The position numbers and the translations under genes are program-made. DNA of 64,000 nt from an uncultured delta proteobacterium. GTDB lineage: Bacteria > Desulfobacterota > Desulfobaccia > Desulfobaccales > 0-14-0-80-60-11. A model generated the notes under the pieces. It was not told where the DNA came from. It searched no databases and saw nothing but the letters and a program-made list of their open reading frames with translations. Within the stretch, counting starts at the first letter, position 1. Every line of letters starts with the position of its first letter. Where the stretch lies: assembly GCA_963812015.1 (NCBI GenBank), contig CAWETI010000003.1, positions 992,001-1,056,000 on the forward strand, read 5' to 3'. Positions 8,567 through 24,968 of this stretch are shown here, piece by piece.

Positions 8567-8615
8567 TATGCAGATCATATCGCAACCTTTTGGGTTGTGC
8601 TGATAATGGCAAGTT
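8567..8615 (+). repeat. Island repeat family, partial copy (core + right arm)
   Basis: ATGCAGATCATATCGCAACC...GATAA aligns with 12901-12940. Confidence 0.6.
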
Positions 8616-8655
8616 CTAGAAACTTTTGTATCCGAAGTTTTCTCTTTGCTAAACC

Positions 8656-8719
8656 ATCTCTGGCTTGACTTGAACCCCAGACTAACTTAAAACTTGGTAC
8701 AACTACTGGGGGCAGGTCA
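8656..8719 (+). mobile_element. Orphan right end of an IS3-family element
   Basis: ATCTCTGGCTTGACTTGA..ACTTAAAACTTGGTACAACTA..GGGGGCAGGTCA is nearly identical to 27112-27175. Confidence 0.9.
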
Positions 8720-8853
8720 TGTGCTTGTTCATGGCTAGGTCGAGGTCGGGCACAATCCGGTGCAAACGGGCACTACTGGGCACTTTGGAACCTGGCAAAA
8801 CAGCTCACCGGAAAAACTTCACCAGCGTCCAGTAGACGCACTTTAAGATCGCT

Positions 8854-9822
8854 ATGAATCAAGACGTGCAACTTTTCTCCTCTACGGCGACCGCGGTATT
8901 CTTGGAGGCCTCTCCCTTTTTACTTTTGGGGGCGTTGCTTTCGTCGGTTTTTGAGGTTTATCTGCCGTCGGATCGCCTGGAGAAGTTTATGCCCAAGGGC
9001 CTTCTCTTAGGCCTGCTTTTCGGGCTGAGTGCCGGGATCTTGATCCCCACCTGCGAGTGTGGCGTGGTTTCAATCGTGCGCCGGTTATTGAAAAAGGGCG
9101 TTCCACCGCATGTGGCGATGACTTATATGCTCTCGGCGCCGGTTATCAACCCGCTGACTATAGCCGCCACTTATATTGCTTTTCGTGGGAATTTCTGGAT
9201 GGTCCTGGGGAGAATCGGTATAGTCGCGGCCTGCGCCTCCTGTATAGGACTGGCCTTGGCCAGGATCAATCCGGTTCTGCTGCTGCGAGGGAGGGAAACC
9301 GAGCCGGACCTCTGTGACCATGACCACACAATTTGTAGCCCTGCTGATGTGAACCATATGCCTCATGTCCATCTTGACGTGGCCCATGGGTGTGGCTGCG
9401 GTTGTGCAGTCCCCAAAGGCTCCAGGCTGATCCAGGTGTTCCAGCATACAGCTTCGGAGTTCTTGGATATGGGAACGTATCTCATTCTAGGCGCTTTGGC
9501 GGTCGGTTTTTTCAGGGCCTTGCTCCACCAAGAGTGGCTGGCTTTTTTTCAAGACAACGTCTTCCTGGCCATTGGGATGATGATGCTCCTGGCTTTTTTT
9601 CTATCAATTTGCTCGCAAGCCGATGCCTTTGTGGCAGCATCCTTTGTCACCTTTCCCATTGTGGCCCAGCTTTCCTTCGTAACGCTTGGGCCAATGGTTG
9701 ACCTTAAACTCGTCGCCATGTATGGGGCGGTGTTCCGCAAGCGCATAGCGCTCACGCTCATCGTAGTGCCGATAATCCTTATTTATATTTTATCGCTCCT
9801 GCTGGGGATAGTGATCAGGTAA
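8854..9822 (+). CDS. Predicted permease (DUF318/YcgR-like) with His/Cys-rich loop
   Basis: EASPFLLLG, PTCECG, SAPVINP, SICSQADAF, GPMVDLK motifs. Confidence 0.9.
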   Translation: MNQDVQLFSSTATAVFLEASPFLLLGALLSSVFEVYLPSDRLEKFMPKGLLLGLLFGLSAGILIPTCECGVVSIVRRLLKKGVPPHVAMTYMLSAPVINPLTIAATYIAFRGNFWMVLGRIGIVAACASCIGLALARINPVLLLRGRETEPDLCDHDHTICSPADVNHMPHVHLDVAHGCGCGCAVPKGSRLIQVFQHTASEFLDMGTYLILGALAVGFFRALLHQEWLAFFQDNVFLAIGMMMLLAFFLSICSQADAFVAASFVTFPIVAQLSFVTLGPMVDLKLVAMYGAVFRKRIALTLIVVPIILIYILSLLLGIVIR

Positions 9823-10613
9823 TGATGGGACGAATCGGTGGAATTATCGAGGGACTCATTCTGCTGGCGATAGGTGCCTATGCCGGTCTGCTGGTTATTT
9901 ACGGGGATTATTGGCGATTCCTGAATCCTAAATTTAAATGGCTGACCGGTTTGACTGCGGCCATGCTGATTCTTATAGGCACAATAGCCATCTTCAAGAC
10001 CAACAAACGGGCAAGCTATTTCAGGATTTGCATTTTCCTTATCTTTCTGGGAATCATCTTTTGGGGAAATTCAGGAAGGCCGGTAAGCCCAAAAGCCCAC
10101 TCAAAGGCTCTTTTGGAAAGCCCGGCTGACGCGGTGTCCCGAGGTGAAAGGCTTGCTGAAGAGAAATCTCGCCTGGCCCTGAATGGCCTTGAGTACATAA
10201 AAATCAATCTTGGCGAACTTTACTCACTCTGCCAAGAACCCAAACCAGACAAGATAGCCAGTCGCTACGTAGTCCGGGGGATCGTCAAACGCACTAAACA
10301 AACGGATCGTTTGGGGTACTTTGTGCTTCTCAGGAGCGCGGTAGTTTGCTGTCTGGCTGATTCGGTAGGGGTGGGGTTCAGGGTGAAGTACGAGCGGCTG
10401 AATGAACTTGAGGATGGGCAATGGGTGGAGGTCTATGGGACCCTGAGGAGCCTGTCGAAGAAGTTGCCAAAGCCTCACCTGCGCATCAAAGAGATTCGTT
10501 TGACTGTCTTGTGCGATTCTCATATTTTGGTCCCGGCCAGCATCGTTGGAACGGAAGAGCCGGAAACTCCTTTCATGTTCGAGTTCAGTGATACTGAGCC
10601 ATATAGATTCTGA
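9822..10613 (+). CDS. YcgQ/DUF1980 (TIGR03943-like) permease partner
   Basis: N-terminal TMs, R..VVCCLADS motif, GQWVEVYGT; translationally coupled to the permease. Confidence 0.85.
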   Translation: MMGRIGGIIEGLILLAIGAYAGLLVIYGDYWRFLNPKFKWLTGLTAAMLILIGTIAIFKTNKRASYFRICIFLIFLGIIFWGNSGRPVSPKAHSKALLESPADAVSRGERLAEEKSRLALNGLEYIKINLGELYSLCQEPKPDKIASRYVVRGIVKRTKQTDRLGYFVLLRSAVVCCLADSVGVGFRVKYERLNELEDGQWVEVYGTLRSLSKKLPKPHLRIKEIRLTVLCDSHILVPASIVGTEEPETPFMFEFSDTEPYRF

Positions 10614-10680
10614 GACTTATGGGACAACCCTGTCTAAATCTATTAACTGTTCCATCGGCTCATAACTTAAGGAAATTTTC

Positions 10681-22620: not shown

Positions 22621-23070
22621 TCAAACCGATTGCCCTCCCTTCTGGCATTTGGGGCAAAGGCCGAAAAAGTTTAACTGGTGATGGGTGATTTCATACCCGG
22701 TCTGCTGGGCCATTACTTGAGTAAGCTCAGCCATAGCCGTAAACTCGGGATCAAGGATTTGGCCGCACTTGGTGCAAATGACATGGGGATGAGGGTATGG
22801 TTTATTGCCATCATAGCGACTGCCCATACCGGCAAAATTAAGCTCCAACACCTCATCCATATCCTTTAGCAGGCTTAAGGTCTTATAGATGGTGGCCAGG
22901 CTGGTGGTGGGAAAATCAGCTTTTATTTGATCATAAATCTTTTCGGCACTGGGGTGCCCTTCGCTCTTGGCTATAATTCTCAGCATAGCCAACCGCTGAG
23001 GGGTAAGTCGGCCCCCTCTTTCCCTCAGCAACCTGATTATCTGGTCTAAACGCTTTTGGGGATCAGCCAA
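22621..23070 (-). CDS. perR: Fur-family peroxide regulator (PerR-like)
   Basis: [36 protein letters not shown]; directly upstream of katG. Confidence 0.88.
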
Positions 23071-23094
23071 TAACTTTATCCTGAAAGTTTCTCT

Positions 23095-23125
23095 TTATTA
23101 ATAATGATTATCAATAAAATGTCAA
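23095..23125 (-). promoter_or_regulatory. Fur/PerR-box overlapping the promoter of perR-katG
   Basis: Imperfect palindrome TTATTAATAATGATTATCAATAA (23095-23117); TTGACA on the minus strand at 23125-23120. Confidence 0.75.
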
Positions 23126-24032
23126 GGGGGAGTTTGTTGAAGTTGTGAGATTTTTGGTTGCCGCATTCGATAGAGGCCAGGGTGAACCCAGACTAGCATA
23201 TCTGCTATATATTTTCTGCTTTAAGCCGCAGAAAAATGGTGCGATATCCTTCTAATATCTGCTTTTATATGCCGCCAGAAGCTCATGGTTTGGCTCCGAA
23301 TGAAGGTTAGCCTGATTTTGGTGCGATGGTGCGCCAATATCACCTATTACCAGCCCGCCCCAAGAAACCAAGAAAGCCTCCCGGCCAGGTGCCCCACGGA
23401 ACCGCAATCAGGCCCTCAAGGGAGAAATTCGGAACACTTTAAAAAATGGGGTTGGGGTACGAAGCGCTCTATCGGATACGGGGGGAGGGAGTCCCGGACT
23501 TGGGGTTTGGGTTTCCGGGCCTTCCAGGGACAGGAAAACGCGCACGGGCGTAGCGCACCATAGAACAGAAGGCAGGGGCATCCACCACCCCCAGCACAGG
23601 GTCGGGCAGGGGTCGTTTTTGGCCCCTGGAGGGCTATCGGATCATTTTTGGTTCAATTGCCCCCCCCAGGCTTGACCCCGACCTTTCCCCCTGGACTGCA
23701 CCCCGATCGCCTCACCATCAATGAGAGAATCATTTGTAGCAGGCATCCTGAGATGCCGTTATCTCCCTCCTGGCGAGGTCGGCCAGGAGCAATCCACCGT
23801 AGGGAGGAAGGGGCTGGGAAAAAGGGGCGGCTGGGCACAGATTTTAAACTTAGCCCATTGTGGTCGCTTCGCTCAATATTGCTTGTATTGTCCTGGGCAT
23901 CCAGGTCTTCGCCCTTTAGCTAACCGTTCTTTCCTGATCCTGTACCCATCATACAAAAGGATAATTAATTATTGATAATTCGGAAAAGATATATTATCCT
24001 TCGGCCTACAAATTTCCCTGGCGGATATTGCG

Positions 24033-24383
24033 ATGGAACGGCGAAGGCATAAGCGGATTTTTGCTTCTATTCCCGTTAAGATCCATGTCCAACGAACTGA
24101 ATCTCCAAAGGATTCATGGAGCACCCTTGGAGTTCTAAAAGATATTAGCTACGAGGGGGCCTATTTCAGCACCAAGGCAAAACCGCCCCTGGAACAAGGA
24201 CAAATTAAAGGGTTTACCATCACACCCGCTGAAGAGAACCCCAACCTTCCTGGTATCACCCTCATTGACGGAACAGGTCGAGTTGTTCGCATAGATATCC
24301 CTCAAACAGGCTTTAATGATACCGGGGTCGCACTTGAGTTTATTTCGGCCAAGCTCTTTGACTGCCTAATTAAAGATAGTTGA
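24033..24383 (+). CDS. Stand-alone PilZ domain protein
   Basis: ERRRHKR (RxxxR), DISYEG (D/NxSxxG), GRVVR, GVALEF. Confidence 0.9.
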   Translation: MERRRHKRIFASIPVKIHVQRTESPKDSWSTLGVLKDISYEGAYFSTKAKPPLEQGQIKGFTITPAEENPNLPGITLIDGTGRVVRIDIPQTGFNDTGVALEFISAKLFDCLIKDS

Positions 24384-24890
24384 CAGTCATCTCCTGGCCC
24401 TCTTGCCCATCCTCTTTCAGGTTTTCTCGGTCAAGCCAGCCCTGCCCGATCATGCCCGTTCCGATGACTACTCTCGCTGGAGTTTCATTGCCGTTCCAGA
24501 AATATCCCTTGCTTTTATCCAATAATTAATTATTATTGACTTACCTCCCCTATGACCCCCATATCGCGGGGGGGTTCACATAAGGCCGACCTACGTCCCT
24601 CCCCATGACACTCAGGTCGGCCTATCATTTTGGGCCTTGCCCCCCCCATCGGGCATGGTTTATGGCTCTTAATGCGCAACTTGCAGCCTGGGACTGTCGC
24701 CAGCGGTGGCCTTATGACCCTATAAGAGCTGGATCTTGAGTCGGGGCAACACCCCCACTCGCATAACCCATACCTCCATTCACATCTGCATATAACCTAT
24801 GGGACCTTCCATTGAAATTTTCGCCTATATCTGGCATAAGGAATATATTTGGGCTTACACGAGAGAGGTTGCTTTCGGGAAGATGCGCAT

Positions 24891-24968
24891 TTTAGGGCTT
24901 AAACTCAGAAAAATAGATCCTAACATTACTTTGGAATAGAGGAAGAAACGGTTTCCGCATAATCTCGG
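24891..24968 (+). repeat. Island repeat family, diverged terminal block
   Basis: GGGCTTAAACTC...CCGCATAATCTCGG upstream of the gene at 24997. Confidence 0.6.

Follow-up and report, generated by a model that had tools for sequence, protein, structure and literature searches.

We analysed a window of 64,000 nucleotides from the genome of an uncultured delta proteobacterium (G000; contig C3, positions 992001-1056000), in which a low-GC island carries intergenic repeats that an earlier note had described as one family of about 350 bp, confined to the island and serving as recombination sites for gene modules. The repeat is real, and the reported family is two things mixed: end remnants of a known insertion sequence (IS) of the IS1380 family, and cassette-type junction sites, here called arm-core-arm sites, which, judging from sequence, apparently belong to an undescribed recombinase-cassette system. 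Splitting the repeat into two element families matters, since ordinary IS1380 ends make up half of the copies listed. As for the other half, we find it somewhat probable that the arm-core-arm sites form a double-stranded, non-integron cassette system run by a small tyrosine recombinase nested in the longest form of the site, and not by the recombinase encoded at 5365-5985 of the island.

Repeat sequence is present at every place listed earlier, always co-oriented and always intergenic (Table 1). The motifs exist as described, with CTGCTATGA at 12741, 17410 and 20166 and AAATCATCCTCCCCACAA at 12868, 15948 and 17539; neither occurs in 32001-64000, the half of the window that had been called free of the repeat. 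The single family does not stand: both of its parts occur together only at 12741-13092 and 17410-17886, and the parts are different elements. We built two profiles, one from 10 arm-core-arm copies and one from 14 copies of the second part, reported as a ‘terminal block’. Searching with these returned 75 arm-core-arm and 42 terminal-block matches in the real genome and none of either kind in a shuffled genome. The 75 matches collapse to 68 loci on both large contigs and both strands, and the repeat is thus real, non-random and not specific to the island. Nearly all matches (73/75) lie outside long open reading frames (ORFs); neighbours no more than 10 kb apart are on the same strand in 35 of 37 cases, and GC content around the matches is 53%, against a comparison value of 58%. 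Within the genus, the arm-core-arm repeat is present in 15 of 17 genomes, and within the sister family in 4 of 12.

The terminal block is not part of the recombination site: it is an IS1380-family right end. The C-terminus of an IS1380 transposase lies upstream of several copies, and in relatives the block directly follows the transposase at 13 of 14 loci; the transposase scores 364.8 bits against NF033539 (cut-off 180) and matches PF13701. A matching left inverted repeat is found at 12 of 13 terminal-block loci and an exact 5-bp duplication at 3 of 13. The block thus shares with the IS1380 family (ISEcp1-like) the upstream transposase, the inverted repeats and, in some copies, the 5-bp duplications, whereas the arm-core-arm sites are unrelated to this family. 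The five window copies are solo ends with no transposase. Only 8 of 41 terminal blocks are preceded, at a distance of up to 500 bp, by a detected arm-core-arm right end, and in a cassette system IS1380 right ends would ride inside the cargo. A DsbA-like gene follows an IS1380 end in 10 of 11 relatives, and an IHF/HU gene is carried within the IS1380 3' end both in the window (13724-14266) and in 3 of 3 relatives examined. The suggestion that the island's IHF is a partner of the sites is not supported, as the gene sits in the IS1380 3' end and an exact IHF consensus is found in only 3 of 93 half-sites. Two other assignments of the terminal block were rejected: it adjoins an element combining a recombinase with IS91 only at the G000 locus and, weakly, at one more of 17, and the IS1380 result rules out a dif end or a RIT end.

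The arm-core-arm site is built from three motifs whose geometry is fixed: a (CTGCTAT, in 25 of 31 left halves), the core b (ATAT-N7-ATAT) and c (TGGCAAG). TTATCA stands 10 bp past a (29 of 31 left halves), TGATAA 10 bp ahead of c (49 of 62 right halves), and the arms are inverted repeats, symmetric around the 7-bp spacer. Copies are 61-79% identical, with motifs and spacing conserved while the rest drifts; an inter-core 18-mer, previously taken as invariant, is so only in the three window copies and varies in the others. The 36 complete sites fall into three size classes of about 100, 217 and 1,045 bp, represented in G000 by 10, 11 and 1 sites, respectively. For about two thirds of the right halves (41/62) no recognised left half lies at the standard distances, and some of them carry other left-arm subtypes. 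At C2:682914, C2:1665355 and C3:1655052 of G000, such subtypes keep the same a-to-core geometry, and genes for other tyrosine recombinases lie no more than about 1.5 kb away; several enzymes may use one site architecture. By eye, a sigma-54-like GG-N10-GC spacing is seen at some right ends; sigma-70 promoters and terminators occur at the repeats at chance level.

Integron attC sites carry the boxes RYYYAAC...GTTRRRY, and in dif sites XerC and XerD boxes flank a 6-bp spacer. Among 21 complete sites the attC boxes were found in 1/21 and 0/21; the dif motif gave 2 matches at 3 mismatches, both inside a gene, at 16304-16327, and at chance level; and folding of the single-stranded DNA of 21 sites was no better than that of shuffles (mean z -0.4 on both strands). 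The earlier statement that the repeat is neither attC nor dif nor CRISPR is supported. In 21 complete sites the longest exact target-site duplication is 0-4 bp, with no fixed length. As with a plain miniature inverted-repeat transposable element (MITE), short non-coding copies are numerous genome-wide, their ends are inverted and there is also a longer form that contains a gene; the repeat is nevertheless no plain MITE, since target-site duplications are absent, and it differs further in having a tyrosine recombinase instead of a DDE transposase and in the strict co-orientation of its arrays.

The claim that gene modules recombine at the repeat survives for the arm-core-arm motifs, which behave as cargo-exchange sites, and fails for the terminal block. 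Four non-IS duplicates longer than 1 kb and above 89% identity involve the repeat region of the island, and in each of them an end coincides with a site: 4792-8613 stops at c, 8704-12798 stops in a core, 16036-17367 begins at c, and 18659-20174 (99.7% identical to C2:790333-791848) stops at a. Genome-wide, 7 of the 158 ends of 79 intragenomic duplicate pairs lie within 8 bp of a site, where 0.25 are expected; the null behind this figure is generous, as sites and duplicates alike are concentrated in islands. One unit of 817 bp, containing a single 86-aa gene, extends from c to the next c at two loci that differ in their upstream arms and downstream DNA. We fetched 19 loci of relatives for the double zinc ribbon/SH3 gene, of which 2 were too short and 17 informative; at 7 of these 17 a same-strand site lies within about 150 bp downstream of the gene. 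Two loci, L378 and L386, have sites on both sides and different neighbours at each, and homology between L386 and L391 ends at TGGCAAG. Finally, two loci that are 99.9% identical upstream both have the rare variant CATCTAT and diverge directly after it. The pattern of a gene moving together with its downstream site as a unit in co-oriented arrays is seen, in few cases.

The candidate enzyme is encoded within a site. The 1,045-bp site at C2:302473-303517 reads, in order, a-b, a hairpin, a tyrosine recombinase gene on the reverse strand (the only gene of the unit) and b-c. The nested recombinase has about 281 residues and is Xer-like: its nearest structures are those of archaeal XerA and XerC-like proteins, with which its catalytic R-K-H-R-H-Y set aligns, and against the integron integrase model TIGR02249 it scores 48.9 bits (cut-off 265). 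In the order, 25 of 81 genomes have a homolog; 3,145 protein clusters out of 4,000 scored candidates match at E<=1e-60, and on plasmids there is no match at E<=1e-40. Homologs were also found at 80 loci from Desulfobacterota and beyond, 53 of them with a readable N-terminus. With loose patterns, the right-end motif lies 81-131 bp upstream of the recombinase at 37 of 53 loci and the left-end motif downstream of it at 28 of 52. At L103 and C3:1477142, the long and the short site form stand between similar flanks.

Near codon 20 of the recombinase gene, a run of 6-10 A coincides with a +1 frameshift in 36 of 53 homologs (C2:302420-303522 and loci L045-L124). Three more shift -1 at the run, 13 are continuous and have no run of six, and one shifts +1 at a broken run. 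This pattern would fit programmed slippage, with the homologs counting as related sequences rather than independent events, and recombinase output would probably be throttled in this way. The words ‘integrase’ and ‘recombinase’ are absent from the accessible main text of Antonov 2013 (PMC3711429), and ‘frameshift’ does not appear in the accessible part of a tyrosine-recombinase survey (bioRxiv 10.1101/542381), which covers IS91-linked enzymes and a different Desulfovibrio group; here and below, published sources are cited for the accessible parts of their text.

The protein at 5365-5985, earlier proposed to serve the sites, is probably not their cognate enzyme. It is 26% identical to the nested recombinase, is rare in relatives (at E<=1e-50, 3 of the 68 other genomes in the family and none of the 16 others in the genus), and none of its 5 loci has arm-core-arm sites around it. 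Against TIGR02249 it scores 77.5 bits (cut-off 265).

In the cassette system that we propose, each cassette would end in a core and a right arm (b-c), with an exchange point at or just past TGGCAAG; CTGCTAT would be a second exchange point and the core a third. The simplest rule to account for the breakpoints is recombination of like with like between sites of the same orientation (c x c, a x a, b x b), which would excise, move and re-order cargo, possibly through circular intermediates. The c x c reaction would move a cassette (cargo plus b-c), a x a would swap what comes behind a given flank, as the CATCTAT loci exemplify, and b x b would interconvert the 1,045-, 217- and 100-bp forms. The most likely enzyme is the Xer-like recombinase lying in reverse orientation between the two cores of the longest site.

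Several observations weigh against this proposal. The only nested-recombinase copy found in G000 carries an in-frame TAA stop, and yet some site-bounded duplicates are 99.7-99.9% identical, so that another enzyme or a recent loss would be needed. The 7-bp core spacer has 31 variants among 51, a poor fit with a homology-dependent b x b step, and the count for c (61/62) is inflated by the pattern used for calling ends. Besides the generosity of the breakpoint null, only one clean c-to-c unit was found among the 79 duplicate pairs, and that 817-bp cassette is present in 0 of 82 other genomes. The zinc-ribbon/SH3 gene has no site at 10 of the 17 relative loci, and homology of katG, DsbA and flavin reductase in relatives mostly stops at gene ends, not at sites. 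Among 51 site records (duplicates included) there is no empty/filled pair, and among the 118 metagenome contig matches listed for a c-to-a circle junction, none has real arms. Five alleles considered as empty sites turned out to carry left arms of other subtypes, each followed by a core after about 45 bp. In contigs from public runs, the joints listed connect repeat copies and say nothing on excision; viral contigs gave 0 matches for one left-arm pattern.

The strongest rival, which we nonetheless regard as rather unlikely, is that the a-to-c unit is a one-gene tyrosine-recombinase transposon resembling Tn554 or the SEs. The arms would be terminal binding elements around the 7-bp spacer, a would be target-derived and c always carried, the 100- and 217-bp forms would be miniature derivatives, and shuffling of cargo would be a by-product. 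The inverted arms and their symmetry around the spacer suit such a transposon, and recombinase-bearing copies have unrelated flanks past a and c, including six loci of one assembly. Furthermore, the near-identical copies L054 and L055 differ in a (CTGCTAT versus CTTCTAT), the element-free allele L223 retains AACTGCT, and in SEs the spacer at one side is that of the target, whereas that at the opposite side is carried (PMC10214605). However, the c-to-c unit and the zinc-ribbon units without a left arm are not a-to-c transposons, most right halves have no recognised left half at the standard distance, the lack of a full empty/filled pair counts here as well, and SEs require four genes (PMC10214605). 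The transposon and the cassette system could both hold: a mobile enzyme unit may seed sites that later serve as cassette ends.

It is improbable that the sites are inert scars and insertion hotspots, where IS1380, IS1111-type, recombinase+IS91 and IS3 elements pile up and homologous recombination makes the breakpoints. Many IS ends do adjoin sites, the local recombinase gene is broken and copies are only 61-79% identical; against this, the breaks fall at 7-bp motifs to the exact base, the arms around them have diverged too far for homologous recombination, and the motifs and their spacing are conserved while the rest drifts. Least credible of all are the readings as a structured RNA, as a single-stranded site that folds like attC or as an array of transcription-factor sites: the consensus can pair both arms and the core palindrome and the sites are intergenic, but these readings are largely refuted by the folding result and by the lack of arm covariation (p 0.08 with 36 sites, 0.19 with 22; covariation term only -0.5 to -0.6), and no Rfam covariance model matches window 1-32000 up to E=1, in line with the earlier preference for DNA sites over an RNA.

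Two unrelated mobile elements target the sites. An IS1111-type element stands directly after c (TGGCAAG) at 4 of 4 left ends found, and its guide RNA should encode the TGGCAAG site. The recombinase+IS91 element begins at the CAT of the core in 7 of the 11 left ends listed, 2 of those 7 at an inverted core. This element (L180-L191; C2:1180915-1182300) encodes an IS91 transposase and a recombinase resembling integron integrases; it is sharply bounded, has an imperfect hairpin at its terminus and goes into CAT triplets, in many cases that of the core; G058 contains five identical copies.

Integrons (defined in PMC8618304) are the classic case of machinery devoted to gene capture and re-ordering. 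The arrays described here resemble them in that co-oriented cargo units each have their own end site, a tyrosine recombinase is tied to the sites, arrays occur far from an intact enzyme (as in CALINs), and IS1111-type elements target the site, as IS1111-attC elements target integron attC sites (PMC11187229). They differ in having no RYYYAAC/GTTRRRY boxes and no hairpin, in an enzyme that by TIGR02249 is not IntI, in conservation that lies in sequence and spacing, in an enzyme gene inside the site, and in cargo that is often multi-gene or reversed. In pdif modules, short double-stranded tyrosine-recombinase sites flank exchangeable modules. Compared with pdif and XerCD-dif, the arm-core-arm repeats have no dif motif, have 7-bp spacers, form composite sites of 60-220 bp in direct orientation only, and have a recombinase of their own. 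With Tn554, SEs, GInts and RIT elements they share imperfect terminal inverted repeats, target specificity, lack of target-site duplication and asymmetric end spacers; they differ in using one small recombinase, not two or three plus accessory genes (SEs need four genes; RIT elements need three, PMC3414803 and PMC5737581), and in their internal cores and c-to-c units.

In the literature searched, which lay outside subscription papers and supplements, we found no description of this arm-core-arm cassette system, and it is apparently undescribed; IS1380 ends are already known. Whether it is a third independent type of bacterial cassette system beside integrons and pdif, with widespread, slippage-controlled Desulfobacterota tyrosine recombinases nested in their own three-motif sites, genome-wide arrays and site-targeting parasites of its own, is a bolder proposition that we would put at slightly short of even. 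If true, there would be a second machine whose sites do not fold and are therefore invisible to attC-based searches, and the growth of accessory islands in sediment Desulfobacterota would have an explanation. The system would also offer a compact recombinase with short, defined sites, open to laboratory testing.

Table 1. Coordinates of sites, IS ends and cargo in the window (elements on other contigs or genomes by locus).
Feature	Position	Strand	Remark
Core b and shortened right arm ending in c	8566..8613	+	Right edge of duplicated 3.8-kb block
Full double-core site a-b-intercore-b-c	12741..12957	+	217 bp
IS1380 right-end remnant (earlier ‘terminal block’)	13007..13092	+	
Core b and right arm ending in c	13569..13627	+	
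IS1380 3' region	13724..14266	+	Inserted IHF/HU gene (13869-14144); truncated right end ~14240-14264
Cargo gene, double zinc ribbon and SH3	14981..15715	+	In relatives moves with downstream site
b-intercore-b-c site without left arm	15858..16037	+	
Cargo block, acyltransferase (16267-17256)	16038..17367	+	Paralogous copy also starts at c, there broken by IS1111-type element
Full double-core site a-b-intercore-b-c	17410..17628	+	219 bp
IS1380 right-end remnant	17752..17886	+	
IS1380 right-end remnant	18587..18694	+	Directly ahead of DsbA-like gene
Cargo block, DsbA-like and flavin reductase	18659..20172	+	Identity with duplicate ends at a
Full single-core site a-b-c	20166..20265	+	100 bp
Diverged IS1380 right-end remnant	24881..24968	+	
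Tyrosine recombinase of phage-like block, 206 aa	5365..5985	-	Terminase large subunit at 6947-8479
IS1111-type element	G000:C2:800057, C3:121133, C3:887029; L042		Subterminal repeats; behind TGGCAAG

The island (2249-29411, flanking gene pieces included) splits a YifB/ComM-type Mg-chelatase gene, whose N-terminal piece (2249-2458) matches PF13541 and whose C-terminal piece (28578-29411) matches PF01078 and PF13335. At the island end lies a large serine recombinase gene (27223-28659) that is cut by IS3: its start is replaced by an IS3 copy, and near-identical IS3 copies occur at four other places. The phage-like block with the small recombinase and the terminase large subunit (4792-8613) is duplicated, at 94% identity, at C3:457666-453858.

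In the DsbA-like gene (18720-19346, plus strand), an in-frame TGA occupies the first CxxC position, as it does in 11 of 11 relatives and the G000 duplicate, and SelA is encoded in the genome; the product is probably a selenoprotein. On the minus strand, 20415-23070 encodes a catalase-peroxidase and a Fur/PerR-type regulator, a pair that is common across the family and in relatives not bounded by sites. Three tandem 25-bp copies at 4407-4497, after the ORF at 3702-4412, look like iterons. Finally, an exact 85-bp tandem duplication, either real or an assembly artefact, lies at 642-811, where two genes meet.

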